From positions 28,787 to 92,786 of the forward strand of contig JBFLZX010000001.1 in assembly GCA_040756075.1 (NCBI GenBank): DNA of 64,000 nt, given 5' to 3'. Positions 21,633 to 37,669 of the stretch are shown piece after piece. The stretch's first letter is position 1, and each line of letters begins with the position of its first letter. The DNA comes from Patescibacteria group bacterium (GTDB taxonomy: Bacteria; Patescibacteriota; JABMPQ01; JBFLZX01). The position numbers were made by a program, and so were the translations under genes. The notes below the pieces were generated by a model, which was given only the letters and a program-made list of their open reading frames with translations, ran no database searches and was not told the origin of the DNA.

Positions 21633-21648
21633 AAAAAAGGAGATATTG

Positions 21649-23055
21649 ATGAAGAGCAGAATAAAATCTTTAATTATAAGTAAAAATTCTTGCATCAAAG
21701 ATGCTATAAAGGGCATAATGAAAAATGGTTATGGAGTTGTTTTTATAGTAGACGAAAACGGTCGATTTATTAGTGTTATAAACGATGGCGATATCAGAAG
21801 GGGTATTCTTAAAGGGAAGCAGTTGGCGGATAATGTTATGACGATATCTTCAGATACGCCTTTTTATGTGTTAGATAATATGTCGAAAGAAGAGATAGCG
21901 GGGTTCATCAATAAGAAAAATAATTTAAAAAATAAAATTCAATATGGGGGTACCCTTAAGGTACCAGTTTTAGATAAGAATAAGTTAATTACCAATGTTT
22001 TGTTTATTTCCATAAATGACAGCGGAGTTTGCATTATTGATCATGACTGTAGAAGCCCTAATAAAATGCGAGAAATTAAAAAAAATAAAAATATATTAGT
22101 TACCGGCGGAGCAGGCTATCTTGGTTCAATTCTATGCAAGAAACTACTAGATAATGATTATAAGGTCAAGGTATTAGATAATCTGATGTATGGTGATCAT
22201 GGGATAAGGCAATTTCTTAATAATCCTAATTTTAAGCTCATCAAGGGAGATATTAGAAATATTCAAATCGTTGTAGAATCTATAAAAGACGTTGATGCAG
22301 TTATTCATCTTGCTGCAATAGTAGGGGATCCTGCTACTACCAAATTTCCCCAAGAGTCTATCGATGTAAATTATTTAGCAACTAAAGCAATTGTTGAAGT
22401 TTGTAAATATTACCAGGTCAATAGATTTATATTTGCTTCTACTTGTAGTGTTTATGGTTATCAATCCGAAGAGGATAGCGGATTAACAATTAATTCTAAG
22501 CTGAACCCGCTTTCTTTATATGCAAAGATGAAGCTTGAGTCAGAGAAAGCCATTCTTTCATTAGCTGATGATTATTTTTCACCCTTAGTTTTAAGAATGG
22601 CAACTCTATACGGTTTATCTCCTAGGATGAGATTTGATTTAGCGGTTAATTTCCTTTCTGCCGAAGCCGTAATTAAAAAGGAAATAGTAATTTTTGGCGG
22701 CAGTCAATGGAGGCCATTCCTGCATGTAGAGGATGCCGCAAATGCTTATGTTAAATGCCTCGAATTACCTTTTAGGAAAGTACGGAAAAAAATATTAAAT
22801 TTAGGCCAAAATAATCAAAATTATCAGATGCTTCGCGTAGGAAGAATGATAAAGAAGCTAATCCCGGGAACGAAATTAGGGATATCTAAAAAAGAAGTTG
22901 ATTCGAGAAATTATAAAGTATTATTTGATGATACCGTAAAGAACATAGATTTTCATGCCGATTATAAAGTATCAGACGGAATTGCAGAAATTAGAGATCG
23001 CATCTTAGAGGGAGATTTTATTGATTATAGAGATAAAAAATATAGGAATGTTTGA
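21649..23055 (+). CDS. CBS-domain pair fused to an NAD-dependent sugar-nucleotide epimerase/dehydratase (paralogue of the N-domain of 9889..12069)
   Basis: N-terminus: CBS-like (GVVFIVDENGRFISVINDGDIRRGI). C-terminus: ILVTGGAGYLGS and YAKMK. It shares the ATLYG.S.RMRFDLA.N and QWRPFLHVEDAA blocks with the 9889 ORF. The start is taken at the ATG 21649, which follows an AAGGAG RBS. Confidence 0.65.
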   Translation: MKSRIKSLIISKNSCIKDAIKGIMKNGYGVVFIVDENGRFISVINDGDIRRGILKGKQLADNVMTISSDTPFYVLDNMSKEEIAGFINKKNNLKNKIQYGGTLKVPVLDKNKLITNVLFISINDSGVCIIDHDCRSPNKMREIKKNKNILVTGGAGYLGSILCKKLLDNDYKVKVLDNLMYGDHGIRQFLNNPNFKLIKGDIRNIQIVVESIKDVDAVIHLAAIVGDPATTKFPQESIDVNYLATKAIVEVCKYYQVNRFIFASTCSVYGYQSEEDSGLTINSKLNPLSLYAKMKLESEKAILSLADDYFSPLVLRMATLYGLSPRMRFDLAVNFLSAEAVIKKEIVIFGGSQWRPFLHVEDAANAYVKCLELPFRKVRKKILNLGQNNQNYQMLRVGRMIKKLIPGTKLGISKKEVDSRNYKVLFDDTVKNIDFHADYKVSDGIAEIRDRILEGDFIDYRDKKYRNV

Positions 23056-23081
23056 ATTATAAGACATAGAAAGGAGTGATT

Positions 23082-23531
23082 ATGCCTAAGATAACTAAGC
23101 CACAATTATTGAATATAGAATTTCATTGTGATGATAGGGGCTATCTAGTTCCTTTAACAAATAATTTGGATAGAACATTGCAAAAAAAGATAAAAAGAAC
23201 TTATGTAGTAGGAAACTTTAGTAAAGGAGTAATCAGGGGATTACATTTCCATAAAAAAGAAATTAAAATATTTTATATTGCCCGAGGTGCCGCAAAATTC
23301 GTAGCTATCAATCCTAAATTACCTAAAAAGGATTTTTATGCACATGTTCTTTCAGACAAAAAATCTGCTTTATTTATAATTCCTCCCGGATATGCTAACG
23401 GCTGGGTTTCTTTATCTGATAACACAATATTAATTTCTTTATCTACATCTACATTTCAGGAAAGTGTAAAAGATGACATAAGATTTTCTCCTTACGAATG
23501 GGGAGATATTTGGAATATAAGAGCCAGGTAA
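23082..23531 (+). CDS. Cupin-fold sugar-nucleotide 3,4-ketoisomerase or 3,5-epimerase (FdtA/WxcM-like or RmlC-like)
   Basis: A roughly 150 aa cupin. The N-terminal segment HCDDRGYLVPL resembles the RmlC/FdtA block, and IRGLHFH is a cupin His motif. It lies between an SDR and a DegT aminotransferase. Confidence 0.5.
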   Translation: MPKITKPQLLNIEFHCDDRGYLVPLTNNLDRTLQKKIKRTYVVGNFSKGVIRGLHFHKKEIKIFYIARGAAKFVAINPKLPKKDFYAHVLSDKKSALFIIPPGYANGWVSLSDNTILISLSTSTFQESVKDDIRFSPYEWGDIWNIRAR

Positions 23532-23534: not shown

Positions 23535-24719
23535 ATGATAAATAAGAGAATAATTCCTTATGGAAAACAGTGGTTATTTAAAGAAGACATTAATTCAGTT
23601 GCTAATGTTTTAAGGTCCGATTGGATTACTCAGGGGCCTAAAATTAAAGCCTTTGAAGATGCAATTTGTAACTATTGTGGTTGTAAATATGCAGTAGTGG
23701 TTTCTTCCGGAACAGCCGCATTGCATATTGCCTGTTTGGCAGCAGGGCTTAAAAAAGGAGATCAGGCTATCACAACTCCGTTAACTTTTTTGGCTACAGC
23801 AAATTCTGTATTATACAGCGGGGCAGAAGTAATTTTTGCAGATATAGATTATGCTACCGGTAATATTGATACGAGACAGATTGAGAAAAAAATAACAAGA
23901 AAAACTAAAGTATTGTTGCCGGTAGATTTTGCAGGACTGCCTTGTGACTTATCAGAAATAAAAAAAATTGCAAAACGATATAAACTTTTGGTGATAGAAG
24001 ATTCTTGTCATGCTTTAGGCGCAACCTATAAAAATTCAAAGATAGGCGATTGTAATTATTCCGATATGACAATATTTAGTTTTCATCCTGTAAAACATAT
24101 TACAACAGGAGAAGGCGGGGCCATCACAACAAATTCTAAGAAGTTATATAATAGGCTTATTGCGCTAAGGAACCATGGGATGTGTAAGAAAGCGCAAACA
24201 TTAAAGAAAGAGGGTTCTTGGTATTACGAGATGAACTATCTTGGTTTTAATTATAGAATTACCGATTTACAATCTGTTTTAGGATTAAGTCAAATTAATA
24301 AATTACCTTTATTCATAAAGCGTAGAAATTTGATTGCCAATAGATATGACCAAGCATTCTTTTGTTTTAGAGATCTTCTAACTTTACCATCGATAAATTA
24401 TGGAGATAGAACACATGCTTGGCATTTGTATACGCTTAGATTAAACATGGCTAAAAAATATATTTCGCGTAGACAATTATTTGAATTGTTGCATAAAGAA
24501 GGAGTAAGAGTGCAAGTTCATTATATACCTATAACGCGGCAACCTTATTACCGAGAAAAAGGTTTTAAGAGCTCACTCTTTCCAAATGCTGAAAAATATT
24601 ATGAGAATGTTATTTCATTGCCAATCTATCCTAAAATGGACAATTCGGATATTGATTATGTTATAGGCGTTGTAAGCAAGATAATAGATAAATATTGTAG
24701 ACAAGGAGGCAGTAAGTGA
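23535..24719 (+). CDS. DegT/DnrJ/EryC1-family PLP-dependent sugar aminotransferase
   Basis: WITQGPKIKAFE, SSGTAALHIA and SFHPVKHITTGEGG are typical of this family. Confidence 0.75.
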   Translation: MINKRIIPYGKQWLFKEDINSVANVLRSDWITQGPKIKAFEDAICNYCGCKYAVVVSSGTAALHIACLAAGLKKGDQAITTPLTFLATANSVLYSGAEVIFADIDYATGNIDTRQIEKKITRKTKVLLPVDFAGLPCDLSEIKKIAKRYKLLVIEDSCHALGATYKNSKIGDCNYSDMTIFSFHPVKHITTGEGGAITTNSKKLYNRLIALRNHGMCKKAQTLKKEGSWYYEMNYLGFNYRITDLQSVLGLSQINKLPLFIKRRNLIANRYDQAFFCFRDLLTLPSINYGDRTHAWHLYTLRLNMAKKYISRRQLFELLHKEGVRVQVHYIPITRQPYYREKGFKSSLFPNAEKYYENVISLPIYPKMDNSDIDYVIGVVSKIIDKYCRQGGSK

Positions 24720-26185
24720 GGGTACTTTTAGCCTATCTTAGTGATACTGGCATAGGAGAAATACCCATAGGTTTATCTATAATTCAGGCTTGCTTGAGAC
24801 AGGCAGGGCATAGTACGTGCATCTTTGATACCACCTTTTTTAAACAAACTGATATAAGGAGTATTAATGAGAACTTGGGTGTGCATAAACCTGTTAACTT
24901 AGAAGATTATGGGGTAAGCCTTACTTATAGCGACATCGATGATGAGTTTTTATCTGTAGTAAAAAATTTTAATCCGGATCTTATAGGCTTTTTTACTACT
25001 AGTTACAATTTTTTTCAAGTATTAAATATGATTAAGTTGATTCGTCGGAATAATATAAATACTCAAGTAATACTAGGGGGTCCTCATACGACAGTTGCAC
25101 CCGAAGAGAGTATTAATTATCCGGAAATTGATATGCTTTGCGTGGGAGAAGGAGAAGAGGCAATTATCGAATTATGCAAGAAGATGCAAGTATCAAATAG
25201 GATCGATAATATAGAAAATATTTGGATTAAGCATGACGGCAGGGTCTACAGAAATCAACCAAGGCCTTTTATATGCATGGATAAGGTTCCCTGTCCTGAT
25301 GCAGATAGTTTTTCCGATATGCATTTTTTTAAACCTTTTTCAGGTAAAGTATATCGTATGGGGCATATAGAAATAAGCAGAGGTTGTCCTTTTAGTTGCA
25401 CATATTGCATTAATGCATATATGCGTAACTTGTATAAGGCTAAAAATGAAGGTAATTATCATCGTGAAAAGAGCATAGATAAAGCTATATCGGACATAAA
25501 AATATTGGTTAAGAGGCACAATCTTGAAATGTTGCGTTTCTGGGATGAAACTTTTTTATTTATGAAGGAGTCTAGATTGAATGAATTTAGTAAGAGATAT
25601 AAAAAAGATATTAATCTCCCTTTTATAATTTCAACACACCCGGCTACTATTAATGAGAAAAGAATAGGGATTATGAAGGATATGGGTTGTGTTGCTATTA
25701 GCGTTGGAATAGAGAGCGGAAACGACCGTATCCGTAGGGCGCTTTTAGGTCGTAAAATTAGCAACGAACAAATAATTAGAGCTTTTGATATTATTAAGTC
25801 ATCTGGAATAAGGGTTACTTCGTATAACATGATTGGCTTACCGTTTGAAACACGTAAAAATATCTTTGAGACCATAGACTTAAATCGAAGAGTTAAGGTG
25901 GATACAGCTGGCCCAAGTTTTTTTTATCCTTATCCGGGGACTAAATTAAGAGAAGTTTGTTTAGAGAGTAATTTTATAGATTCAGAGCTTAAACCAGCAG
26001 AGAATAATGTTGACACCATACTCAATATGCCACAAATTAAGCATAAGGAATTAAAAGGACTGCATAAGACTTTTACTCTTTATATAAAATCACCTAAATG
26101 GTTATTTCCTCTGATTAAGCTTTGCGAGTTAGATAACTATATATCTAATAGAATATTCAAGTTTTTAATCAGAAGATATTGCTAA
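24716..26185 (+). CDS. B12-binding radical SAM protein
   Basis: N-terminal B12-binding-like domain. Radical SAM motif SRGCPFSCTYCIN. Confidence 0.75.
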   Translation: MRVLLAYLSDTGIGEIPIGLSIIQACLRQAGHSTCIFDTTFFKQTDIRSINENLGVHKPVNLEDYGVSLTYSDIDDEFLSVVKNFNPDLIGFFTTSYNFFQVLNMIKLIRRNNINTQVILGGPHTTVAPEESINYPEIDMLCVGEGEEAIIELCKKMQVSNRIDNIENIWIKHDGRVYRNQPRPFICMDKVPCPDADSFSDMHFFKPFSGKVYRMGHIEISRGCPFSCTYCINAYMRNLYKAKNEGNYHREKSIDKAISDIKILVKRHNLEMLRFWDETFLFMKESRLNEFSKRYKKDINLPFIISTHPATINEKRIGIMKDMGCVAISVGIESGNDRIRRALLGRKISNEQIIRAFDIIKSSGIRVTSYNMIGLPFETRKNIFETIDLNRRVKVDTAGPSFFYPYPGTKLREVCLESNFIDSELKPAENNVDTILNMPQIKHKELKGLHKTFTLYIKSPKWLFPLIKLCELDNYISNRIFKFLIRRYC

Positions 26186-26201
26186 GAAGGGCGGGCATAA
26201 G

Positions 26202-27269
26202 ATGTTTAAATTTAACAAAACAGTAGAAATTGATGGCGTGAAAATTGGTAGCGGACAACCTTGTTACATAGTAGCTGATGTTAGCGCTAATCACAATTCA
26301 GATTTTAAAACTGCAAAAAGATTTATAAGGTTAGCCAAAGACATAGGTCTAAATGCAATTAAATTTCAAACATACACAGTTGAAAAGTATCTTTCAAAAA
26401 AAATTAAGCGGGAAGACGGATATCATTTTAATAAATCTTTTCAAAAAGCAAAGAAATATGAATTACCTTATGAATGGCATCAAGAATTATTTGATTATGC
26501 TAAGGATTTAGGGGTTACAATTTTTTCTACTATTGATGATATCGATACCATTGATTTTTTAAATAAATTAAATACGCCAGCCTTTAAGGTGTCTTCTCCC
26601 GATTTAAATTTTTTACCAATGATAGAAGAGGCTGCCAAGACTCTTAAGCCACTTATTTTATCAACAGGCATAGGAGATATATCTAGAATTAAAGAGGCAA
26701 TTGAATCGGTAGCTTCCTACGGGAATGATCAGTTGATACTATTGCATTGTGTTTCTATGTACCCCTCGCATTTTTCGGAAATGAATATTCGCTGCATAAC
26801 TAACTTACAGGATACTTTTGGTCTACCTGTAGGGTTATCTGACCATACAGCGGCCAGCCAAGATCCTTATTCTGTAGCTTTGGGAGCTGTGGCTTTGGGT
26901 GCAAATATGATAGAAAAACATATTACATTTAGCAGATCCCAAGATGGCCCGGATCACATATTTTCTATGGAACCCGATGAATTTTCCAAATTAGTTACTT
27001 ATATAAGGAATCTTGAAGAATCGTTGGGTAATGGAAGGAAGTGTCCTGTCTCCAGAGAAATTAAAGTGAGCATAGAGATAACAAAGAGTATCCATACAAC
27101 AAGAGATATAAGAGCTGGAGAAATAATCAAGGAGTCAGATCTGAGAATATTAAGACCAGGTTACGGAATTGAACCTAAATATCTAGGAGATGTTATAGGT
27201 ATGAAAGCAAAAGTTGATATAAAAGATTCAGAGGCGCTAGAGTGGAATTTATTAGAGAAAAATAAATAA
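26202..27269 (+). CDS. Nonulosonic acid synthase (NeuB/PseI/LegI/SpsE family), PEP-dependent
   Basis: The NeuB-family N-terminal barrel (GSGQPCYIVADVSANHN...AIKFQTY) is followed by a C-terminal SAF/antifreeze-like domain. Confidence 0.75.
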   Translation: MFKFNKTVEIDGVKIGSGQPCYIVADVSANHNSDFKTAKRFIRLAKDIGLNAIKFQTYTVEKYLSKKIKREDGYHFNKSFQKAKKYELPYEWHQELFDYAKDLGVTIFSTIDDIDTIDFLNKLNTPAFKVSSPDLNFLPMIEEAAKTLKPLILSTGIGDISRIKEAIESVASYGNDQLILLHCVSMYPSHFSEMNIRCITNLQDTFGLPVGLSDHTAASQDPYSVALGAVALGANMIEKHITFSRSQDGPDHIFSMEPDEFSKLVTYIRNLEESLGNGRKCPVSREIKVSIEITKSIHTTRDIRAGEIIKESDLRILRPGYGIEPKYLGDVIGMKAKVDIKDSEALEWNLLEKNK

Positions 27270-28060
27270 TGAATATTAAAGTAAATAGAATAGGCTGTAT
27301 TATTCAAGCACGAATGAATTCACATAGGCTTTTTGGTAAGGTATTGGTAAAAATTTGCGGGAAATCTATATTAGAGCACATTATTGAACGAATAAAAGAA
27401 TCGAAATATATTCAAGAAATTATTATTGCAACTTCTTCTTCTGGTATAAATGACCCAATAAGAGACCTCGGCAATAAAATTAATATACCTGTTTTTAGCG
27501 GCAGCGAGGACGATGTATTAAGTAGATATATAGAGGTTAGTAAAACATATAATTTTAGAATTATAGTTCGGGTTACAGCGGATGATCCGCTTATTGACAT
27601 ACAAGAAGCGGATAAGATGATAAAAATACTTGAAGAAAAAAAGCTAGACTATGTAACAAATTCAGATATCAGCTTGGATGATTATAATACAGAACTTCCA
27701 GCCGGGTTCCAGGTGGAAGTTTTATCCAGCGATGCTCTATTAAGCTTGGAAGATAAAGATCTGACACAATTGCACAGAGAACATGTAACTCTTTATATCG
27801 AGCAATACGCAGAGAAATATAATATTAGATTTATTAAACCGCGAGAGAACATACGTTACAAGGGATTACGTTTAACAGTAGATACGCCAGAAGATCTAGG
27901 ATTAATGAATAAGATATACCTTGAGTTATATAAAGGTAGGCCTATTCTTAATGAAAAAGTTGTAGAGTTAATTAAAAAGAATCCTAGCTTATCTTTATTA
28001 AACAGTTCTATAAAAACAAATTACAGTTATTTAGACGGAATAAGGGTTAAAAAATTATGA
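27269..28060 (+). CDS. Cytidylyltransferase, SpsF/PseF-like (CMP-nonulosonic acid synthetase family)
   Basis: GCIIQARMNSHRLFGKVL in a GT-A-like nucleotidyltransferase fold. It is the classic SpsE-SpsF neighbour of the NeuB-like gene. Confidence 0.6.
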   Translation: MNIKVNRIGCIIQARMNSHRLFGKVLVKICGKSILEHIIERIKESKYIQEIIIATSSSGINDPIRDLGNKINIPVFSGSEDDVLSRYIEVSKTYNFRIIVRVTADDPLIDIQEADKMIKILEEKKLDYVTNSDISLDDYNTELPAGFQVEVLSSDALLSLEDKDLTQLHREHVTLYIEQYAEKYNIRFIKPRENIRYKGLRLTVDTPEDLGLMNKIYLELYKGRPILNEKVVELIKKNPSLSLLNSSIKTNYSYLDGIRVKKL

Positions 28061-29508
28061 TCGATTGTCTTCTGATATATCCTAATCCTACAAAGGATAG
28101 TCCTAAAAAAGGCGTAGCTTTAGGTATCTTTTACTGCGGAGCAATGCTTGAGAAGAGCGGTCTTAGTGTAGAGTATTTTGATTCGCGTTTTGATAGTAAT
28201 GAAAAATTGAGAAAAATTATTGATCGCAGAGTGCTATGTGTCGGAATATCTTCTATGACCGGTAATCAACTAAGAGAAGCAAAAGAGTTTCTTAAATTTA
28301 TAAAGAATGAGGATGCATCTATTTTTACTATAATGGGCGGTGTTCATCCTTCAATTTTACCTCTTGAGACATTAAGTGATGAATTAGTTGATTTTGTAGT
28401 AATCGGAGAGGGAGAGTTTGTTTTAGTAGATTTGATTCGTCAACTAAAAGGCGATAGACGATTATCGGAAGTCGAAAGTCTTTGTTGGAAAGATGGCAGA
28501 AAATTAATTAAGAATAAAAGGGCTCCATTTATAGATTTAAAAGATTTACCATCCCCATTAACTAAGAAGACAGAAAAGTATTATGTTATATCTGCAAAGA
28601 CAAATAATTTAATTCATCCAACAAGCAGATCTTGTCCGGGTTTTTGCGGGTTTTGTTATAACACTGTAGTTAATAAGAGTCAATGGCGTTCTATGCCTGT
28701 TATGAAATGGGCAAAAGAGTTTAACGAAATGGTAAATTTAGCAAGGTTCTCCCATATGTTTACCGGCGATGATAATATTGGTAGAGATAAAGAGCGTATT
28801 AAAGAAATAGGAGATGTATTTATGGCCAGAGGTGTTACCTGGCATACGAATATTAGACCAGAATATTTAGATGAGGAGTTGATAGGGATCCTAGAGAGGG
28901 GTGGGTGTACTAGTTTGTTATTAGGTTATGAATCTGGTTGTAATAGGATATTGAATACAATAATAAAAAAAGGTTTACCTAATGGTGTTTTAGATTTACG
29001 AAGATGTGCCGAACTCATTGGTAGAAGTAAAATTAATGCGCTATATAGCTTTATGAGCAATCTTCCTACCGAAACCTGGGGTGAATTAAAGGAAAGTATG
29101 GATTTAGCAGATTATATAAAAAAAGTGGATAAAAAATGCAGAATTAGTTTTTATGTTTATGGTCCATATCCCGGTACGCCGATGTATCATATGGCTTTAA
29201 GGCAAGGCTTTAGAGAGCCTAGAAGTATAGAAGAGTGGGGAACTATTTGTTTGACTTACGCCGCAAATGCCTTAGTTGAAAATTTGCATTATATAGCTTC
29301 ATTAAATTTTAGGGGAGGCAAAGGCGATAATACTTCTATTAATTTTCCCGGTTTAAAAAGATTACTTTTATTGCCTTTTGAGTTATCGGCAAAATTAAGA
29401 TGGAAATTAAGATTTTTTAGGCTGTTCAATCTAGAAAAACGAATCGTAAAATACCTTTTTGGCTGGGCAGCAGCACGTATAGATAGATTGCATAAATATA
29501 ATATTTAA
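28057..29508 (+). CDS. B12-binding radical SAM protein
   Basis: N-terminal B12-binding-like domain. Radical SAM motif SRSCPGFCGFCYN. Confidence 0.7.
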   Translation: MIDCLLIYPNPTKDSPKKGVALGIFYCGAMLEKSGLSVEYFDSRFDSNEKLRKIIDRRVLCVGISSMTGNQLREAKEFLKFIKNEDASIFTIMGGVHPSILPLETLSDELVDFVVIGEGEFVLVDLIRQLKGDRRLSEVESLCWKDGRKLIKNKRAPFIDLKDLPSPLTKKTEKYYVISAKTNNLIHPTSRSCPGFCGFCYNTVVNKSQWRSMPVMKWAKEFNEMVNLARFSHMFTGDDNIGRDKERIKEIGDVFMARGVTWHTNIRPEYLDEELIGILERGGCTSLLLGYESGCNRILNTIIKKGLPNGVLDLRRCAELIGRSKINALYSFMSNLPTETWGELKESMDLADYIKKVDKKCRISFYVYGPYPGTPMYHMALRQGFREPRSIEEWGTICLTYAANALVENLHYIASLNFRGGKGDNTSINFPGLKRLLLLPFELSAKLRWKLRFFRLFNLEKRIVKYLFGWAAARIDRLHKYNI

Positions 29509-29515
29509 TATAAAA

Positions 29516-31051
29516 ATGACAAATACAGTTTTAGTCAGAGTAGATAGTAACTATCATGTAGGTATGGGGCATATTATGAGATGTGTTGCTTTAGCGCATG
29601 AGTTCAAACGGAGAGGAATAAAGCCTACTTTTCTAATTAAGAATTATAAAGAAGCTAAATTTATTCTAGATAAAAATTCTATGGATTATCTTTGTTTACC
29701 TAAAATAATCAGTATGGAAAAAGAAGTAGAATTTATTAATCAGTCTGCCAAAGATGCTAATACTAGAATCTTAGCAATAGATTTGAAAAAAATACCAGCT
29801 TTATACATTCAAGCTTTAAAAAATAAAGGATTTTTTCTTATATGTTTTTCTGATTTTGAAAAAATAAGGAAGAGCGCCGCGGACCTTATAATAGCCGGAG
29901 AATCTTATTATAAAAATAAAGAGGAAGGCATAGTTCGTGGTTTAGATTATATAATCACCGGAAGAACATCAATAAGATATAATAAGCGAAAAAAAATAAT
30001 TAATAAGGTTAAAAGGATTCTTTTAAGTTTTGGCGGGGGAGATAATGGCGGGGTATTTATAAAGGTCTTAAGGGCCTTAGAGAAATCTAGACATAGATTA
30101 GAATTCAATTTAATTGTTGGCGCAACATTTAAACGCCATTCTTTGCTAAAAAAAATTATTAATAAGACAAAATTAAATTTAAATATTATTGAAAATACTA
30201 ATTCAATGGCTAAATATTTATATAATACGGATGTTGCTTTTATATCTGGAGGGGCAACAAAATATGAAGCTGCGTGCATAGGGACACCATCTTTTATCAT
30301 AGCACAAGATAACAGGCAGTTTAAATATTCAAGAAGGTTTTCTGAATTGACAAAGGCAGCTATATGTTTAGGTAGGCATAATAAATTGAAAGTTAGGAAT
30401 ATTCATAAACAGGTCGACCCCCTTTTTTGTAATAAACAATTACTTAGAAAGATGAGTGATGCCGGTAAGCTTAGCGTCGATGGATTAGGTGCTAGGCGAA
30501 TAGTAGATAGGATATTATATTTACAATCTAAAATATTATATCCAAGCATCTCTCTGCGATTGGCGACAAGAAAAGACCTGCCATTATTATTGAAGTGGTT
30601 CAATGATCCAGAGTTAAGGCAATTTTCTATTACTTCCAAGAAAATAACATTAACTCAACATAGAAAATGGTTTACTAGTTTAAATAAAAGAAAAAATAAA
30701 ATATTTGCCGTTGATTTGAATGGGCAACATATAGGCACAGCGGCATTAAGGAATATTGACTCAAAAAATAGACAGGCTGAGTTAGCTATAGAGATAGGTG
30801 AAAAAGAGTATTGGGGTAAAGGTTACGGTACATTAATCATAAAACAACTTTTAGAATACGGATTCAATAAGCTTAATTTAAGATCGGTTTACCTTTCAGT
30901 TTTTTCCAAAAACAACAGAGCGGTTAATTTATATAAGAAGATCGGTTTTAGTCTTAATCAAAGTGAAAAAAAAATTATAAATAAAGACGGTAAGCGCATA
31001 GAGCTATCTCGAATGAATTTGGACAATAAAGAATATTTTAGGCGGAAATGA
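29516..31051 (+). CDS. PseG-like UDP-sugar hydrolase (GT-B fold) fused to a GNAT N-acetyltransferase (PseH-like)
   Basis: N-terminus: VRVDSNYHVGMGHIMRCVALAHEF, which matches the PseG G-x-G-H-x-x-R signature. C-terminal roughly 170 aa: GNAT fold (ATRKDLPLLLKWFNDPELRQF ... YWGKGYG). Confidence 0.65.
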   Translation: MTNTVLVRVDSNYHVGMGHIMRCVALAHEFKRRGIKPTFLIKNYKEAKFILDKNSMDYLCLPKIISMEKEVEFINQSAKDANTRILAIDLKKIPALYIQALKNKGFFLICFSDFEKIRKSAADLIIAGESYYKNKEEGIVRGLDYIITGRTSIRYNKRKKIINKVKRILLSFGGGDNGGVFIKVLRALEKSRHRLEFNLIVGATFKRHSLLKKIINKTKLNLNIIENTNSMAKYLYNTDVAFISGGATKYEAACIGTPSFIIAQDNRQFKYSRRFSELTKAAICLGRHNKLKVRNIHKQVDPLFCNKQLLRKMSDAGKLSVDGLGARRIVDRILYLQSKILYPSISLRLATRKDLPLLLKWFNDPELRQFSITSKKITLTQHRKWFTSLNKRKNKIFAVDLNGQHIGTAALRNIDSKNRQAELAIEIGEKEYWGKGYGTLIIKQLLEYGFNKLNLRSVYLSVFSKNNRAVNLYKKIGFSLNQSEKKIINKDGKRIELSRMNLDNKEYFRRK

Positions 31052-31785
31052 ATATGCATATATTATCAGCCCATCAACCAGCTTATTTGCCATGGCTAGG
31101 CTTATTTCATAAAATTGCTATTTCTGATACATTTGTAGTTTTTGATACCGTGCAATATTTAAACGAAGACTTCAATCATAGAAATAGAATCAAGATTCCA
31201 TTTGGTTCAATGTGGCTTACTGTTCCTGTTGTAACTAAGGGAAGATTTCCTTTATTATTAAGGGATGCCCAAATAGACAACTCTAAACCTTGGCAAAAAA
31301 AACATCTAAAATCTATTATGCAAAGATACAGCAAGGCCCCTTATTTTAAAGACTATATAAGATTTTTCGAAGAGCTTTATAGTAAAAAATGGGATATGTT
31401 AGTTCCTCTATGCGACACAATATTTAAGTATTTATTAAAAGAGATGAGAATTCATACAAAAATTATTTATGCCCATCAATATAAATTTCAAGGCAAGAAG
31501 TCGGATTTAATTCTTGATATGTGTAAACAACTAGATGCGGATCTATTTATTTTTGGCGAAATGGGGCAGGATTATGCCAAAAAGGAAGAGTATCATAAAA
31601 ATAGAATTATTCCTTATTTTCAAAAATATAATCATCCCATATATCCACAACTATATGGAAAGTTTATTCCTAATTTATCGACTATTGATTTACTTTTTAA
31701 TTGTGGAAGTAGGAGCTTAGAAATCATCATGCAAGGAAATATAACAAGAGAAGATTTAATGAAATTTTATACTACAGAAAGATAA
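31048..31785 (+). CDS. WbqC-like family protein (function unknown, found in O-antigen/nonulosonic acid loci)
   Basis: HILSAHQPAYLPWLGLFHKIAISDTFVVFDTVQY matches the WbqC-like signature. Confidence 0.6.
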   Translation: MNMHILSAHQPAYLPWLGLFHKIAISDTFVVFDTVQYLNEDFNHRNRIKIPFGSMWLTVPVVTKGRFPLLLRDAQIDNSKPWQKKHLKSIMQRYSKAPYFKDYIRFFEELYSKKWDMLVPLCDTIFKYLLKEMRIHTKIIYAHQYKFQGKKSDLILDMCKQLDADLFIFGEMGQDYAKKEEYHKNRIIPYFQKYNHPIYPQLYGKFIPNLSTIDLLFNCGSRSLEIIMQGNITREDLMKFYTTER

Positions 31786-31795
31786 GGAGAAACCG

Positions 31796-32488
31796 ATGGC
31801 TATTAATAATAGAATACTAGTTGTTGTAGCGCATCCAGATGATGAAGCGCTTGGCTGTGGAGGTGTTATTTCTAAGCATGCCGAAAAGGGAGATGATGTT
31901 TTTATCATATTTTTAGGGGAGGGGTTGGCAGCTAGGTACAAGGATTGCAAGACTCCATCAAAAAGAATATTAAATCTTCATAGAATGCAATCAAGAAAAG
32001 CAGCAGATATACTTGGAGCAAAGAGAGTATATTTTTTTAATCTGCCCGATAACGCTTTTGATTCTGTTAGGCTTTTAAAAATTATCAAGATAATAGAAAA
32101 AATAAAAAGAGACGTAAAACCGAACATTATTTATACACATTACTGCGGAGATTTAAATATCGATCATAGAATAACTCATCAGGCCGTTCTTACTGCTTCA
32201 AGACCTTTGGTTTCTGAAACCGTTAAAAATATTTATACCTTTGAAGTATTATCTTCTACTGAATGGGCCAATAATCAAAACGAAAGCTTTAAGCCAAACG
32301 TTTATATAGATATTTCGAGCCAACTGAGTAAAAAAATAAAGGCCTGCGAATGCTATAAAACAGAGATTAAAGAATGGCCTCATCCAAGAAGTAGGAAAGG
32401 GATTGAGATTTTAGCGCATAAAAGAGGCTTAGAGGTTAGTTTAAAACATGCCGAAGCATTTATGTTGATACGGAGTATAGGAGAATAA
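31796..32488 (+). CDS. PIG-L/LmbE-family N-acetyl-sugar deacetylase
   Basis: VVAHPDDEALGCGG zinc-binding motif. Confidence 0.75.
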   Translation: MAINNRILVVVAHPDDEALGCGGVISKHAEKGDDVFIIFLGEGLAARYKDCKTPSKRILNLHRMQSRKAADILGAKRVYFFNLPDNAFDSVRLLKIIKIIEKIKRDVKPNIIYTHYCGDLNIDHRITHQAVLTASRPLVSETVKNIYTFEVLSSTEWANNQNESFKPNVYIDISSQLSKKIKACECYKTEIKEWPHPRSRKGIEILAHKRGLEVSLKHAEAFMLIRSIGE

Positions 32489-32491
32489 TAA

Positions 32492-34330
32492 GTGAATTTA
32501 ATAGTTGTTCCGCCTAAGGTAAATGATTGTATTATTTCGGAGAAAATCAAGGCCCAAGAAAGTTATGTTTTTTTGGCTGATTTTCCTGGACAAATGAAAA
32601 ATTTTAAGATAAGAGGCCTAAATATTTTAAATAAAAGTTATTTTTTATCACAGGCCGAAATACGTTTAGTTGAAAAAAAAGCTGAATTTTTTGCTCAAAA
32701 TTGGTTTAAACAAGGCAAGTGCCAGGATCTATTAAGCTATAGAAATATAAACATAGGAGATGCATGCTATTTATTAATACTGAATTACATAATAAAAGTA
32801 TTAAGAGCAATTTTAATTTCAGAAAAATTAATAAATGATAATTTAGATAAAAAGTTTTTTTTAATAGACGATAAAGGATTTTGGTCAAAAACTTTCCTAG
32901 CAGTTATAAAGAATAAATATATAGAAGCCGAAACATTAGTTAATGGAATAAAAGTTTTTAAAAAAACAATTAATAAAGAAGGCATTAAATCTATCATAAA
33001 AAAAACAATTTTAAGGTTTACAAGATTAAACGTTGTTAATGCTCCTAATTTTAAAAAGGAGAAGATTATATTTTCTTGTGCTTTGAGATTCATAAAAGAT
33101 ATTTGGCAGGAATTAAGCGGCGATTACTCTATGTATTATCTGCGCCCGATATTTTCGTTCGATGCTCATAGAATTGAAAAAGATCACAGAGGTTTATATA
33201 TAAAACATATTCTACCAGAATATTTCATTAGTAATAGAGACAAGAACGAAATTGCTAAGAATGTTGATATAGGGAAAATAGCACAGGGTTTAAGAAGCTA
33301 TTTTTCGCAAAACCAATTTTTTAATTTCAATGAATATGATTTATGGCCTATTATAAATGACGATTTAATTCAGATAATTCAAGAGAATCTTATAGAATGT
33401 ATGGCCCGGATAAATAGTTTTGAATGTATGTTTAGTAGGTTAAATCCGATGCTGATTATTGTTGATGAAGACGATTGTCCTTTTAATAGGGTATTAATAA
33501 GATCTGCGAATCTAAAAAATATTAAAAGTATTCAATTAATCCATGGACTAACAGGAAATAGCTTATCAGAATCCGCAACTATTTCTACAAAAGTTGCTGT
33601 TTCTGGAAATGTTGCTTATAATAGGCTTATTGAGTTTGGCGTAGAAAAAAACATCATCGAAATTATTGGATCTCCTCATTATGAACAAAAATTAAAACAT
33701 AGCAATAAGAATAAGATAAAAAAGACAATATGTGATAAATTAAGATTTTTGTCAGATCCTGTTTTAGTAACGTTGGCATTACAACAGTTTTATAGTGATG
33801 ATAGAGTTACTCTCGCGCGTTTTCTAGAAGCAGATTTTATGGAGAAGATGCTACGGATCAGTATTGCAACATCAAAAAAAATTAAAAACATTAAATTGAT
33901 TATAAAATTACACCCCGGAGAAATACATGAATGGTTTGTTGATGATATTATTCGTTCTGAAAAAGCTAGGCATTTGGTAGCAGTTGTTAAGGAATACGAT
34001 ATCATGGATCTTTTATCTGCAAGTACGCTTGTTTTGACTTCCGGATCAACCGTATATACAGAATGTTTACTTACGGCTACGCCGGTATTATTATTTGATG
34101 ATAGCAGGGAAAGATCGTTAGATTTTTTAAGTACAGATTACTTGGATATTAATAATATGCATTTATCTGTTAGGCAGATTCAGAATATGATAGAAAGTTG
34201 TGAATTAAGAAATGACAAGTTATTATTCCAAAAGCAAGAATTAAAAACGCATTTTTTGAATAATAACGATGGCGCGCTTTATAATTTTAAACAATTAGTG
34301 CGGAATATGAGTAATCGGTCTTATGATTAA
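32492..34330 (+). CDS. TagB/TagF/KpsC-family GT-B transferase (CDP-glycerol glycerophosphotransferase or capsule beta-Kdo-transferase-like)
   Basis: The C-terminal block KLHPGE ... LTSGSTVYTECLLTATPVLLFDD resembles the K-x-HP ... TDYSS ... P-I-I-F signature of this family. GTG start. Confidence 0.4.
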   Translation: MNLIVVPPKVNDCIISEKIKAQESYVFLADFPGQMKNFKIRGLNILNKSYFLSQAEIRLVEKKAEFFAQNWFKQGKCQDLLSYRNINIGDACYLLILNYIIKVLRAILISEKLINDNLDKKFFLIDDKGFWSKTFLAVIKNKYIEAETLVNGIKVFKKTINKEGIKSIIKKTILRFTRLNVVNAPNFKKEKIIFSCALRFIKDIWQELSGDYSMYYLRPIFSFDAHRIEKDHRGLYIKHILPEYFISNRDKNEIAKNVDIGKIAQGLRSYFSQNQFFNFNEYDLWPIINDDLIQIIQENLIECMARINSFECMFSRLNPMLIIVDEDDCPFNRVLIRSANLKNIKSIQLIHGLTGNSLSESATISTKVAVSGNVAYNRLIEFGVEKNIIEIIGSPHYEQKLKHSNKNKIKKTICDKLRFLSDPVLVTLALQQFYSDDRVTLARFLEADFMEKMLRISIATSKKIKNIKLIIKLHPGEIHEWFVDDIIRSEKARHLVAVVKEYDIMDLLSASTLVLTSGSTVYTECLLTATPVLLFDDSRERSLDFLSTDYLDINNMHLSVRQIQNMIESCELRNDKLLFQKQELKTHFLNNNDGALYNFKQLVRNMSNRSYD

Positions 34331-34344: not shown

Positions 34345-35127
34345 ATGAAAATAAAAGAACTTTATTCATTGAAAGATAAAACAGCCATTATTACGGGCGG
34401 AGGCGGTAAAGTTGGTAAGTTTATAGTACGGGGCTTATGGGAGGCTGGTGCAAAATGCATTATTTTAAGTAGAAAAAAAGCGAATGCCTCTGATTTATTA
34501 AAAGAGGCAAAACTAAATGGTTACTCTTTATCTTTTTTAGCCTGTGATATTACAAAAGAGAAAGACCTTATAAAAATTAGTAAAAAATTAGCAAAAAATA
34601 AAAATATTAAAATATTAATTAATAATGCAGTTTATACTATAAGCAAAAATATTGAAAGCTTAACATATCAAGATTGGCAGAAAACATATGAGGTTAATCT
34701 TTTAGGGGGATTTCTTTGTGTGAAACATATCGGTCAATTAATTAAAAAAAACGGAGGCGGGAGCATAATTAACATAGGTTCTCATTATGGTTGTATTTCT
34801 TGTGATGAACGCATATATCGTAATAAGAATATAGCAAGCTCTTTATCATATGCAACTACAAAATCTGGAATTTTAAATTTTACACGTTATATCGCTACGC
34901 ACTGGGCAAAATATAAGATTAGGTGCAATACAATTTCTCCAGGAGGCTTTCAGGACAAAAATAATAACGATTATTATTTTAGAAGAGAGTATAAAAAAAG
35001 AGTTCCTCTTGGCAGAATGGCTTTCGAAGATGATATCAAGGGCGTAGCAGTATTTTTAGCTTCGGAAGCCTCGCAATATATTACTGGGCAAAATATTATT
35101 GTTGATGGCGGATGGACTGCTTGGTAA
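34345..35127 (+). CDS. Short-chain dehydrogenase/reductase (classical SDR)
   Basis: TGGGGKVGKF cofactor motif and a YxxxK catalytic pair (YATTK). Confidence 0.7.
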   Translation: MKIKELYSLKDKTAIITGGGGKVGKFIVRGLWEAGAKCIILSRKKANASDLLKEAKLNGYSLSFLACDITKEKDLIKISKKLAKNKNIKILINNAVYTISKNIESLTYQDWQKTYEVNLLGGFLCVKHIGQLIKKNGGGSIINIGSHYGCISCDERIYRNKNIASSLSYATTKSGILNFTRYIATHWAKYKIRCNTISPGGFQDKNNNDYYFRREYKKRVPLGRMAFEDDIKGVAVFLASEASQYITGQNIIVDGGWTAW

Positions 35128-35153: not shown

Positions 35154-36098
35154 ATGAGATATAGAATTTTAGGTAAAACAGGTTTTAAAATTTCAGAAAT
35201 TTCTTTAGGGACTGTTGAGCTTGCACAAGATTACGGATTGTCTAAAGCTCCATCACGAAAAGACGCAGTAAATCTTATAAAATATGCTTTAGATAATGGG
35301 ATTAATTTTATTGATACTGCCAGGGCATATGATCCTGCGGAAGATATTATTGGTGAAGCTATCAGAGATAGGAAGGCTAATCGTCCCATAGTAGCTACTA
35401 AATTAGAATATTTTTTTAATGATGAATTAGGCGAGAAAGAACTGTTTAAGTTTTATAAAAAATCTATAGAGACTTCTTTGGATAGGCTAGGGGTAGATAT
35501 TATTGATATCCTAAAGCTGCATCAGACCGATAAAAATACTTTAAAGATTCCTGGATTACTTGAAGTATTAAGAAAGTTAAAAAAAGACCAAAGGATTAAG
35601 TTTTTAGGTGTGTCTATTTCTGATGTAAGTACTGCTAGAGAACTTATTAACAGTGATATTTTCGATGTAATACAAGTTGCTTTTAATGTATTCGATCAAA
35701 GATTGGAAAAGGAAATTATATATGCATCTTTAGAAAAAAAAATCGGTGTTATTGTGCGTTCAGCTTTTATGAGAGGAATCATTCCTTGTCCATTTGAGAA
35801 AGTTCCTTCTTTGCTTGTTTCTTTGATTCCTTACAAAGAACGCTTAAATTCGATATCAAATAGTATTAATGTTGAACCATATGAGGCCGCTTTATGTTTT
35901 CCTCTTACATTAAATGAGGTATCTACAACTATCGTAGGGATGGAAAATATAAGCTTATTAAGAAAAAATATCGAAGCAGTTAATAAATTCGATATTGTAT
36001 TAAATAATATTTATGAATTTAAAAATATGGCTATAGATAATGAATTTTTAATTACGCCAGCATTATGGGATGCTGCGTCAACAAAGGCTAAGGGATAG
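35154..36098 (+). CDS. Aldo/keto reductase family oxidoreductase
   Basis: YRILGKTGFKISEISLGT N-terminus and the TIM-barrel AKR pattern. Confidence 0.65.
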   Translation: MRYRILGKTGFKISEISLGTVELAQDYGLSKAPSRKDAVNLIKYALDNGINFIDTARAYDPAEDIIGEAIRDRKANRPIVATKLEYFFNDELGEKELFKFYKKSIETSLDRLGVDIIDILKLHQTDKNTLKIPGLLEVLRKLKKDQRIKFLGVSISDVSTARELINSDIFDVIQVAFNVFDQRLEKEIIYASLEKKIGVIVRSAFMRGIIPCPFEKVPSLLVSLIPYKERLNSISNSINVEPYEAALCFPLTLNEVSTTIVGMENISLLRKNIEAVNKFDIVLNNIYEFKNMAIDNEFLITPALWDAASTKAKG

Positions 36099-36105
36099 TT
36101 TTGTT

Positions 36106-37608: not shown

Positions 37609-37669
37609 TTTTTATCCAGTTGTTGAAATATTAAGAATAATAATAGTGTTTGGAAAGGAGTTTTGGATT

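Follow-up and report, generated by a model that had tools for sequence, protein, structure and literature searches.

A pseudaminic (Pse)-type nonulosonic acid (NulO) operon lies at positions ~21402-38395 of the window, the whole 64,000-nucleotide stretch analysed here from the MAG of a tiny, uncultured member of the Patescibacteria, and extends well past the span of 26202-32488 flagged in an earlier note. Judged by its synteny, the B12-binding radical SAM gene at 28057 (genes are designated by their first nucleotide; Table 1) is part of a conserved, uncharacterised three-gene cassette with a WbqC family gene and a PIG-L family gene. This cassette probably swaps and methylates one N-acyl group of the sugar, and a new sialic-acid-like sugar, as the earlier note had proposed, is a plausible product of the module.

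Table 1. Genes of the NulO operon, by position in the window
Feature	Position	Strand	Basis or remarks
HTH_17-like (excisionase/MerR-type) ORF, 76 aa	21402..21632	+	Opens NulO block; putative regulator
CBS-domain + extended SDR	21574..23055	+	GalE/C4-dehydrogenase-like; true start probably ATG at 21649
Small cupin, RmlC/FdtA-like	23076..23531	+	Sugar 3,5- or 5-epimerase, or 3,4-ketoisomerase
PseC-type aminotransferase	23535..24719	+	TIGR03588 PseC 501 bits, equivalog cut-off 423.5
B12-binding radical SAM enzyme no. 1	24716..26185	+	Pfam; lineage-specific
NulO synthase, PseI-like	26202..27269	+	NeuB 254 bits + SAF (Pfam)
CMP-NulO synthetase candidate, divergent CTP_transf_3, SpsF-like	27269..28060	+	Pfam 114 bits
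B12-binding radical SAM enzyme no. 2	28057..29508	+	NulO-cluster-specific orthogroup; probable Cbl-dependent C-methylase
PseG-type UDP-sugar hydrolase (residues 1 to ~330) + GNAT N-acetyltransferase (~345-511), fused	29516..31051	+	TIGR models
WbqC family protein	31048..31785	+	Pfam WbqC 240 bits; predicted BshC/class I aaRS-like ATP-dependent ligase
PIG-L/LmbE family de-N-acetylase	31796..32488	+	Pfam PIG-L 97 bits; BshB1 69 bits; AHPDDE motif
GT-B/TagB-like protein, 612 aa, candidate NulO transferase	32492..34330	+	Weak BFO_1060-family and TIGR04396 matches
Classical SDR (adh_short_C2), EpaB-like by domain	34345..35127	+	Pfam; 76% identity in L001
Aldo/keto reductase (AKR), like EpaA C-terminal domain	35154..36098	+	Pfam 127 bits; 70% identity in L001
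Wzx-type polysaccharide flippase	36070..37608	+	Polysacc_synt, Polysacc_synt_3; kept in L001
Second CTP_transf_3 cytidylyltransferase, weakly PseF-like	37646..38395	+	Pfam 46 bits; TIGR PseF 42.7 bits; kept in L001

Composition of the operon

The six ORFs delimited in the earlier note, from 26202 to 32488, were all present on the forward strand with exactly the starts and ends given there, and Pfam and NCBIfam bore out their domains. Intergenic spacing from 17165 to 41478 ranges between -29 and +37 nt, an operon-like array. A related genome, L001, has the same gene order at 54-83% protein identity; the array is therefore far beyond chance. The small HTH_17-like gene, a putative regulator, is also first in the homologous clusters of L001 and L003/L004. 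Many further sugar pathways lie within the window. The sequence supports assignment of PseC, a PseG-type hydrolase fused to a GNAT, a PseI-like synthase, a cytidylyltransferase, a TagB-like candidate NulO transferase, and a Wzx flippase. The genes thus form a 5,7-diamino nonulosonic acid module, as the earlier note had it, and one of pseudaminic type, but the cytidylyltransferase falls below the PseF cut-off and a canonical PseB is missing from the window.

In the early steps, PseB may be replaced by the CBS-SDR and the cupin. The CBS-SDR (Pfam Epimerase 162 bits, plus CBS; top PDB match 6vo6, 144 bits; 62% identical to its L001 counterpart) scored 121 bits against NCBIfam GalE and 49 bits against PseB, whose cut-off is 408, and its active site (STCSVYG...YAKMK) lacks the D/E-E pair of 4,6-dehydratases; it was ruled out as a canonical PseB on both counts, and the NCBIfam search found none within the window. 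The cupin matched dTDP_sugar_isom (50 bits) and FdtA (36 bits) in Pfam and RmlC (39 bits) and QdtA (31 bits) in the PDB, has an RGLHFH motif, and is 68% identical to its L001 counterpart. As to whether PseB/PseC or LegB/LegC supplies these steps, PseC is present above its equivalog cut-off, and PseB is not in the window.

The synthase belongs with NeuB rather than with KdsA/AroG-like enzymes, DAHP-synthase models reaching only 24 bits. It scored 318.5 bits against TIGR PseI (cut-off 340) and 298 bits against NeuB_NnaB, and matched PseI (8h2c, 194 bits), SpsE (167 bits), and NeuB (139 bits) in the PDB; it has a SANH motif, and SDH and EKH supply metal-binding histidines. In a phylogeny of NeuB, PseI, and LegI, it grouped with PseI only weakly, at a bootstrap of 23/100. 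The cytidylyltransferase at 27269 has counterparts in L001 (68% identity) and L087 (39%); at 26.5 bits against TIGR PseF (cut-off 206), the PseF-like character previously attributed to it was not borne out.

Within the PseG-GNAT fusion, TIGR03590 (PseG) covered residues 4-270 at 126 bits (cut-off 153.6) and TIGR03585 (PseH) residues 351-500 at 93.8 bits (cut-off 93.1). A profile of the N-domain from 29516 and its homologues matched C. jejuni PseG (3hbm) over its full length (E=1e-25), and the domain has GMGH, the motif with the catalytic histidine (His19), so this domain does carry the PseG signature. The GNAT domain scored higher against SpeG (55 bits) than against PseH 4xpk (42 bits). The fusion, which the earlier note had singled out, exists but is a known architecture: the product name is already in the NCBI annotation pipeline, and fused homologues occur elsewhere (P0006, P0008, P0009). 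In L001, the closest relative, PseG is unfused, and no GNAT was found in the 21 kb fetched, which leaves N7 acylation there unexplained.

With the Pse pathway of Campylobacter jejuni and Helicobacter pylori (PseB, C, H, G, I, F), the operon shares the PseC equivalog, a PseG-type hydrolase with its histidine motif, a PseH-like GNAT, a PseI-like synthase, and a CTP_transf_3 enzyme. It differs in having the CBS-SDR and cupin instead of inverting PseB, in the fusion of PseG with GNAT, and in a cytidylyltransferase that is not PseF-like; it adds two B12-radical SAM genes, WbqC, PIG-L, an SDR+AKR pair, and a second cytidylyltransferase.

Downstream, the TagB-like GT-B protein at 32492 matched the BFO_1060 family over residues 450-573, weakly, at 37.5 bits against a cut-off of 200; BFO_1060 is the homologue of a Tannerella forsythia Pse/Leg-derivative transferase (Tanf_01245/BFO_1060; PMC5420450). 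The protein is 57% identical in L001, and the P0021 contig has a 616-aa Glyphos_transf protein. The products of 34345, 35154, and 37646 resemble, by domain set, the adh_short_C2, Aldo_ket_red, and CTP_transf_3 domains of EpaA/EpaB from Acinetobacter baumannii prophages. EpaB, an adh_short_C2 protein, is required to turn Pse into 8-epi-Pse, and EpaA is a CTP_transf_3 + Aldo_ket_red fusion (PMC12053666), whereas the window has these as separate genes. An AKR+SDR pair also adjoins NeuB on a Bacillus albus plasmid. The second cytidylyltransferase may activate the epimerised or edited NulO.

The radical SAM, WbqC, and PIG-L cassette

The 28057 protein combines B12-binding (66 bits) and Radical_SAM (41 bits) Pfam domains, with a CxxxCxxC motif at C193. 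It shares the N-terminal B12-binding Rossmann domain and CxxxCxxC barrel of the class B, cobalamin-dependent radical SAM methylases (MgmA/QCMT, CysS, TsrM, TokK), a class that includes the sugar or phosphonate methylases GenK and Fom3 and has no member known from NulO biosynthesis. Its nearest structures are MgmA, CysS, and TsrM, with AprD4, a non-methylase, equally close, and its identity to class B methylases is at most 22%. A literature search for papers linking radical SAM enzymes with NulOs found none. Patescibacteria are not generally expected to produce cobalamin.

Orthologues of 28057 (43-83% identical) stand beside WbqC, PIG-L, or NeuB in L001-L007, L009, and the P0021 contig, in both PseG-type and Epimerase_2-type (Leg-like) clusters; the carriers are bacteria and also archaea (an AglB-bearing contig and a Thermoplasmata MAG). 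Such company was found at 7/8 independent orthologue loci of at least 43% identity and at 0/77 paralogue loci (p=1.6e-9). A link of 28057 to NulO biosynthesis is supported by this conserved synteny over phyla and domains. The gene had been regarded as an insertion between PseF and PseG that might modify the nonulosonate; the NulO link holds, but rather than being a stray insertion, the gene appears to form a conserved unit together with WbqC and PIG-L. The other radical SAM gene, 24716, is 25% identical to 28057 and 31% to 39973, and is missing from this position in L001, where PseC is followed directly by NeuB.

A confident structure model of WbqC most resembled BshC and the class I aminoacyl-tRNA synthetases (aaRS); sequence searches gave no solved relative and Foldseek no significant match, and going by the model, the likeness to BshC would be one of fold only. 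WbqC-GNAT fusions were found in both domain orders. PIG-L directly adjoins WbqC in 27/47 metagenome loci having enough flank, and 24 of 26 well-flanked WbqC loci contain PIG-L and 22 NeuB; the two genes are widely paired in NulO clusters. MAGs of Patescibacteria, Thaumarchaeota, and Nitrospirae carry the pair as well, and a Mariluticola plasmid has it within an annotated pseBCFG cluster, with pseF/pseG on one side and neuB on the other. In the window, cassette genes are interleaved with Pse genes, between the cytidylyltransferase and PseG, and in L005, PIG-L and Epimerase_2 (Leg-type 2-epimerase) domains are fused in one protein. Directly upstream of WbqC, 24/68 loci encode a class I or TylF methyltransferase and 4/68 a B12-radical SAM enzyme, and this position is therefore typically that of a methyl-transfer enzyme. 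A Bacillus mycoides plasmid carries WbqC and PIG-L without NeuB, beside a FemAB-like gene and genes for a UDP-sugar dehydrogenase and aminotransferases; the pair is therefore not NulO-specific.

Bacillithiol and mycothiol synthesis (BshB->BshC; MshB->MshC->MshD) likewise pairs a PIG-L family de-N-acetylase with a class I aaRS-fold protein, often together with a GNAT, and the order this suggests is that an amino sugar is first deacetylated, its amine then joined to an acid, and an acetyl group added last. However, WbqC, at ~240 aa, is about the size of the catalytic Rossmann core, shows no sequence-level relation to BshC or MshC, and resides in NulO or amino-sugar glycan clusters, not thiol pathways. 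BshC ligase activity is not known to have been reconstituted in vitro. N-acetyl-aminoacyl amino sugars do occur naturally; one example is Qui4N(N-acetylglycyl), carried by E. coli O121. Deacetylation is also built into a NulO pathway in the Leg-type cluster of Ca. Kuenenia stuttgartiensis, where a deacetylase is reported to act within the Leg pathway and CMP-NulOs were detected whose amine is free or re-acylated (SugarBase preprint, 10.64898/2026.04.20.719630); re-acylation is proposed there to proceed via a formyltransferase, and neither WbqC nor a radical SAM enzyme is described.

Proposed route and alternatives

Taken together, the operon may make and transfer a CMP-activated pseudaminic-type 5,7-diamino NulO whose N-acyl group is edited by the cassette, a tentative reading that has nearly an even chance of being right. 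PIG-L would strip one N-acetyl group, most likely the UDP-GlcNAc-derived one that becomes N5, and WbqC, with its BshC/class I aaRS fold, would use ATP to attach another carboxylic or amino acid to the amine thus released, a logic modelled on BshB->BshC and MshB->MshC->MshD; a GNAT may then cap the new substituent. The cobalamin-dependent 28057 enzyme would place a methyl group on an unactivated carbon of that substituent or of the sugar. Radical methylation of the nonulosonate skeleton, as first suggested, is less indicated, the WbqC fold suggesting instead that an N-acyl substituent is replaced and methylated. In the late steps, the SDR, the AKR, and the second cytidylyltransferase may epimerise the sugar in an Epa-like manner and re-activate the NulO. 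Product, substrate, and step order are thus predicted from gene content, and the stereochemistry and radical SAM chemistry are putative.

The same genes could yield another stereochemistry, through an Sps-type UDP-linked legionaminic-like route or to another 5,7-diamino isomer, with the role of the cassette unchanged; we consider this rather unlikely. Bacillus subtilis makes Leg via the Sps pathway (SpsM, C, D, G, E, F) with a PseG-like SpsG (PMC7439481), and the window shares with it the UDP-linked route, PseG-like hydrolase, GNAT, NeuB-family synthase, and SpsF-type CTP_transf_3 enzyme. The cytidylyltransferase below the PseF cut-off, the missing inverting PseB, and the low bootstrap of the PseI grouping point the same way, as does the GINH motif (of SpsE and NeuB) in most NeuB proteins of WbqC loci with a PseG-like neighbour; the downstream SDR and AKR could, moreover, alter the C8 configuration. 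However, the aminotransferase reached only 235 bits with the LegC model against 501 with PseC, the synthase scored higher for PseI than for NeuB/LegI models or SpsE and has the SANH motif of PseI, and a candidate cupin epimerase directly precedes PseC. An SpsM-type dehydratase is missing from the window, and the Sps pathway is without WbqC, PIG-L, and radical SAM genes.

The preferred reading also takes 28057 to be a methylase acting on the NulO. That it is instead an AprD4- or HpnJ-like radical dehydratase or rearrangement enzyme working on a de-N-acetylated amino sugar is decidedly unlikely. Such an enzyme might, for example, remove oxygen from the side chain and leave the SDR or AKR to reduce the ketone, and could offset the missing 4,6-dehydratase; HpnJ, which acts downstream of a deacetylase in hopanoid cyclitol ether synthesis, is the top NCBIfam match (103 bits), SDR 21574 is without dehydratase residues, and an SDR and AKR are kept downstream. 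Yet every NCBIfam match is far under its cut-off, whereas the Pfam B12-binding match is strong, and the slot beside WbqC is usually held by ordinary methyltransferases. Orthologues of 28057 also lie in clusters that already have canonical PseB-/LegB-type dehydratases (the P0021 contig and L005), and dehydratase replacement therefore cannot be its conserved role. Very improbable, in our view, is that WbqC, PIG-L, and the radical SAM enzyme serve a different sugar residue in the same glycan, for instance a hexosamine, the NulO being plain Pse5Ac7Ac and the co-location simply surface-glycan gene clustering. The Bacillus mycoides plasmid, the wealth of other sugar pathways in the window, the origin of the WbqC name in O-antigen clusters, and the E. 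coli O121 sugar would fit such a role; against it stand the presence of NeuB in most well-flanked WbqC loci, the interleaving of the cassette with Pse genes both in the window and in Mariluticola, and the fusion to a Leg-type 2-epimerase in L005.

Gene content and extent of the locus

The window has a single coding strand over all 64 kb and a GC content of ~31%, and the seven ORFs that the earlier note assigned to a nonulosonic acid (NulO) module are real: all lie on the + strand with their coordinates exact, and the assignments were borne out by Pfam and NCBIfam. The NCBI records for the module proteins are MEW6407113-MEW6407116, from a Patescibacteria-group MAG. Intergenic gaps from 17165 to 41478 range from -29 to +37 nt, and this array is thus operon-like. 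No tRNAs were found in the window, and a PHROGs search with these genes gave no useful match.

Genes of the NulO locus and all B12-radical SAM genes in the window; positions are window coordinates, with a start only where a single number is given
Position	Strand	Feature	Basis
2031-3428		B12-radical SAM	domain searches
21402-21632		small HTH_17 (excisionase/MerR-like)	
21574		CBS-SDR	
23535-24719		PseC equivalog	TIGR03588
24716-26185		B12-radical SAM	domain searches
26202	+	NeuB + SAF	Pfam/NCBIfam
27269	+	CTP_transf_3	Pfam
28057-29508	+	B12-binding + Radical_SAM; CxxxCxxC motif at C193	domain searches
29516	+	N-domain PseG-type; C-domain PseH-like GNAT	
31048	+	WbqC (own Pfam family)	PF08889
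31796	+	PIG-L/LmbE; AHPDDE at residues 12-17	PF02585
32492-34330		GT-B/TagB-like, 612 aa	
34345		SDR (adh_short_C2)	
35154		AKR (Aldo_ket_red)	
37646		cytidylyltransferase (CTP_transf_3)	
39973-41478		B12-radical SAM	domain searches
49428-50879		B12-radical SAM	domain searches

Downstream of PIG-L, the GT-B/TagB-like protein weakly matches the BFO_1060 family, itself homologous to the T. forsythia transferase of Pse/Leg derivatives (PMC5420450); its gene is kept both in L001, a Logan assembly locus that is the closest syntenic relative of the window, and on an archaeal pseudaminic acid (Pse) contig. The SDR, AKR, and second cytidylyltransferase beyond it are three separate genes, with a Wzx flippase lying among them. 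Compared by domains alone, they have the same domain set as the Epa/Aci-type NulO 8-epimerisation system, in which EpaB and EpaA turn Pse into 8-epi-Pse (PMC12053666). A Bacillus albus plasmid likewise has an AKR and SDR pair next to NeuB. At the other end, the HTH_17 gene heads the NulO block, as do HTH_17 genes at the NulO clusters of L001 (3329-3589) and of two further homologous loci, L003 (971-1216) and L004 (3583-3828). Heading such clusters across unrelated genomes, the gene is a candidate for a dedicated regulator. Taking the downstream genes together with this head gene, the functional unit is predicted to span ~21402-38395.

Identity of the nonulosonic acid

The earlier note had asked which SDR/aminotransferase pair provides the early steps, and half of that pair was found. 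The PseC equivalog lies directly upstream of the span that the note had flagged, scoring 501 bits on TIGR03588 against a cut-off of 423.5 and 235 bits on the LegC model, but none of the SDRs in the 64-kb window is a canonical PseB: on TIGR03589 the top score, 49 bits, comes nowhere near the cut-off of 408. A CBS-SDR instead stands ahead of a 151 aa RmlC/FdtA-like cupin that neighbours PseC. The active-site stretch of this SDR, STCSVYG, is without the acidic D/E-E pair of 4,6-dehydratases, and its best solved relative (144 bits) is 6vo6, which we take to be the C4-dehydrogenase Cj1427. The enzymology of Cj1427 paired with the cupin C3/C5-epimerase Cj1430 has been described (PMC10680097). With no PseB in the window, and with a cupin and an SDR lacking the dehydratase acids in its stead, the early pathway steps are probably non-canonical.

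The synthase 26202 is a NeuB homologue rather than a KdsA- or DAHP-like enzyme (NeuB 254 bits vs DAHP synthase 24 bits). On TIGR03586 (PseI) it scores 318.5 bits, under the cut-off of 340, and on the NeuB_NnaB/LegI model 298 bits; its solved relatives rank in the order PseI (8h2c, 194 bits), SpsE (167), and NeuB (139). Its SANH motif is that of PseI; in SpsE, NeuB, and the majority of the other NeuB homologues collected, this motif reads G[IV]NH. A phylogeny of the synthase with the obtainable references, called for by the earlier note, gave neighbour-joining trees that group 26202 with PseI, but with a bootstrap of only 23/100, and the clade was not recovered in the Kimura-distance tree; the Pse call was therefore not rested on the tree.

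The N-domain of 29516 appears to carry the PseG signature, as had been proposed: when it was combined with its homologues into a profile, residues 2-267 could be aligned with PseG of C. jejuni (3hbm; E=1e-25), and the catalytic histidine motif is kept in the family as GMGH. The homologue profile was needed, as a single-sequence PDB search with the N-domain matched no solved structure; on TIGR03590 (PseG), the domain scores 126 bits, under the cut-off of 153.6. Its fusion to a GNAT is likewise present but is not special, the architecture having already been named by the NCBI pipeline. Distant fused homologues were also found (P0006, P0008, and P0009), and in L001, at 54-83% identity to the window, PseG is an unfused 341 aa protein with no GNAT anywhere in 21 kb. 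The GNAT domain passes TIGR03585 (PseH) by a margin of 0.7 bits (93.8 vs 93.1), and SpeG-type GNATs score higher with it than the solved PseH structures do. As an alternative to a PseH role, it may cap the product of WbqC, because its stop codon overlaps the WbqC start and WbqC-GNAT fusions, in either order, occur elsewhere. The cytidylyltransferases 27269 and 37646 both have a CTP_transf_3 domain, and neither qualifies as PseF on TIGR03584 (26.5 and 42.7 bits, respectively, vs a cut-off of 205.7).

The PseC and PseI assignments favour a Pse-type product for the window. A legionaminic acid (Leg)-type stereochemistry is also possible, since Bacillus subtilis makes Leg with a PseG-like enzyme (PMC7439481). 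Where a WbqC locus has a PseG-like neighbour, its NeuB homologue (L088-L169) mostly carries GINH, as in SpsE and NeuB, and not SANH, and the GINH-type homologues from WbqC loci form a large clade of their own; judging from these motifs, many of the "PseG + NeuB" clusters in environmental DNA may belong to the Sps type instead of being true Pse pathways.

The B12-radical SAM, WbqC, and PIG-L genes

Both class B radical SAM features, the [4Fe-4S]/SAM motif and the N-terminal B12-binding domain, are present in 28057. The five B12-radical SAM genes of the window are only 23-31% identical pairwise, and their presence in one glycan island implies heavy reliance on outside cobalamin and surface sugars that are radically modified in several ways. 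The 28057 orthogroup is sharply bounded, with members at 40-83% identity (266-953 bits) and the next matches at 33% (207 bits), and every orthologue with a readable neighbourhood lies in a NulO cluster, save one on a 10-kb contig. These clusters are of several kinds: PseG-type in L001 and L002; a canonical PseB/C/F/G/I set on a contig bearing archaeal AglB (the P0021 contig); Epimerase_2 where PseG would be in L003 and L004; and a complete C. jejuni-style Leg set in L005 and L006, from a Deltaproteobacteria MAG. Further orthologue loci come from an unclassified bacterium (L007) and a Thermoplasmata archaeon (L009). The usual gene order is the 28057 orthologue, then WbqC, usually followed by PIG-L; in the window and L001, PseG sits between the first two. 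Counted by independent loci, WbqC, PIG-L, or NeuB was found at 7/8 orthologue loci, vs 0/77 loci of non-orthologous B12-radical SAM paralogues fetched in the same scan (Fisher p=1.6e-9). This conserved synteny argues that 28057 is tied functionally to NulO biosynthesis, in Pse-type and Leg-type clusters alike. The earlier note, which saw 28057 as inserted between PseF and PseG and perhaps modifying the NulO, was thus right about the link, but the gene is no stray insertion and forms a unit with WbqC and PIG-L. The dehydratase AprD4 is as near to 28057 structurally as class B methylases are. A role for 28057 in place of the absent 4,6-dehydratase was considered and judged improbable, since 28057 orthologues share clusters with canonical dehydratases on the P0021 contig and in L005.

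PIG-L 31796 matches PF02585 with 97 bits (cut-off 28) and has the AHPDD metal-binding motif. WbqC belongs to a large family: clustering at 50% identity gives 11,300 clusters for E<=1e-3 and 5,622 for E<=1e-10. Its close homologues (~50-57% identity), from Patescibacteria, Thaumarchaeota, and Nitrospirae, all adjoin PIG-L inside NeuB clusters. Among 80 metagenome loci fetched with a WbqC profile, PIG-L directly adjoins WbqC in 27 of the 47 with enough flank, and the 26 well-flanked loci contain PIG-L (24), NeuB (22), and any B12-radical SAM gene (8). Cultured organisms also have the pair: on a plasmid of Mariluticola halotolerans the genes run pseB-pseC-pseF-PIG-L-pseG-neuB-hyp-WbqC, and Bacillus mycoides megaplasmids carry WbqC and PIG-L in an amino-sugar cluster without NeuB, adjoined by a FemAB-like gene.

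WbqC is predicted from modelling to have a class I aminoacyl-tRNA-synthetase-like nucleotide-binding fold of the BshC/MshC type. NCBIfam gave no match to the BshC or MshC families themselves, a sequence search of the PDB returned only noise, and a Foldseek search found no significant match. In the established bacillithiol and mycothiol pathways, BshB and MshB, deacetylases of the PIG-L family, free a glucosamine amine to which BshC and MshC then attach cysteine; the mycothiol route continues with acetylation by the GNAT MshD. WbqC resembles these enzymes in its genetic pairing with a PIG-L deacetylase, the order of the biochemical steps being drawn by analogy. The Qui4N(N-acetylglycyl) of E. 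coli O121 is a natural N-acetyl-aminoacyl amino sugar, and the name WbqC presumably comes from O-antigen clusters of this type. Genes of the FemA/FemB family, which encode aminoacyl-tRNA-dependent transferases, adjoin WbqC-PIG-L in L170 (Bacillus mycoides KBAB4 pBWB401, NC_010180.1 317573-319831), and one lies beside a B12-radical SAM gene in L002 (8134-9234); these neighbours are a second hint that amino acids may be attached to amino sugars in such clusters.

The surface glycans of bacteria and archaea are capped by NulOs, which govern recognition by phages and immune systems and owe their diversity mainly to their N-acyl groups. Our tentative reading, which we hold to be possible but somewhat improbable, is that the radical SAM enzyme, WbqC, and PIG-L constitute an unrecognised machine for editing NulO N-acyl groups in CPR bacteria, other bacteria, and archaea, an amine being freed, ligated by WbqC, and the new group C-methylated. 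PIG-L would strip an N-acetyl group, most plausibly the one derived from UDP-GlcNAc that later lies at N5, an inherited group with no other way to vary. In L005, PIG-L is fused to a Leg-type 2-epimerase, which suggests that it works on the hexose or close to that stage. WbqC, as a stripped-down aminoacyl-tRNA-synthetase-like ligase, would then use ATP to activate an amino acid or other acid and join it to the freed amine, after which the GNAT may cap the added group and a methyl-transfer enzyme would complete the substituent. The last step was proposed because methyltransferases are encoded directly upstream of WbqC in 24/68 loci (class I in 13 and TylF in 11; B12-radical SAM genes hold this place in 4), and 28057 would perform it as a cobalamin-dependent C-methylation of the acid installed by WbqC. 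The product, the acid installed, the site of methylation, and the stereochemistry are predictions.

To our knowledge, the enzymes that alter the N5 substituent, initially the acetyl group of UDP-GlcNAc, are largely unknown; PIG-L and WbqC, at times with a B12-radical SAM enzyme, are a concrete and widespread candidate. If the editing reading is true, it would mean a new class of nonulosonic acids and the first function for the WbqC family, and NulO biosynthesis would gain its first radical SAM step. Literature searches found no described function for WbqC, no paper connecting radical SAM enzymes or WbqC with NulOs, and nothing relevant joining LmbE/PIG-L with NulOs or Patescibacteria with Pse. 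We classify the locus as a Pse-type pathway with a widespread, uncharacterised candidate editing cassette. That surface-glycan chemistry takes up >64 kb in an ultra-small CPR bacterium, including five radical SAM genes dependent on cobalamin, bears on epibiont-host interaction and on dependence on outside cobalamin. The nearest precedent is a 2026 preprint on a Kuenenia Leg cluster with a deacetylase and a formyltransferase, which also reports CMP-NulOs bearing a free amine (10.64898/2026.04.20.719630).

Other possible sugar branches in the window

Ahead of the NulO block, 17165-21385 encodes a sulfatase-APS kinase fusion (717 aa), then ATP sulfurylase, and finally a pyruvate-kinase barrel of 325 aa without the C-terminal domain; the trio has the same order ahead of the NulO block in L001, and the region suggests PAPS supply for a sulfated glycan. 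On the other side, 37646-44614 is a possible second ulosonic-acid module, comprising a CTP_transf_3 gene, an HpcH/HpaI class II pyruvate aldolase (HpaI 190 bits), a KdsB-like cytidylyltransferase scoring above the KdsB subfamily cut-offs (292 vs 255 bits), and genes for a B12-radical SAM enzyme, a PGDH-like 2-hydroxyacid dehydrogenase, a cyclase, a HAD hydrolase, and an SDR. Its first four genes are kept in L001, and no KdsA was found within it; the module might use its aldolase to make a keto-deoxy acid that is then CMP-activated.

An Arn-like-looking branch occupies 3490-16993, with three PMT_2/ArnT-like GT-C genes (3490, 12066, and 15320), several GT2 genes, a GNAT, and an SDR-aminotransferase fusion (9889-12069; ArnB model 428 bits, PseC model 392 bits), and may transfer polyprenyl-phosphate-linked amino sugars. 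The genes of 57566-63898 look like further sugar branches with no relation to the NulO module: a NodU/CmcH-like carbamoyltransferase, a polysaccharide deacetylase, a LegB-like 4,6-dehydratase candidate (249 bits, SSSEIYG), a 518 aa hexapeptide acetyltransferase that bears an additional domain at its C-terminus, and a non-hydrolysing WecB. The SDR, hexapeptide transferase, and Epimerase_2 genes of 60287-63898 were considered as a Leg branch, which was rejected, 62762 being the non-hydrolysing WecB (363 bits vs a cut-off of 210). Finally, 52015-54130 encodes the RNA ligase RtcB (281 bits) together with a protein resembling thymidylate kinase, on the same strand and without gaps, amid the glycosyltransferase array.
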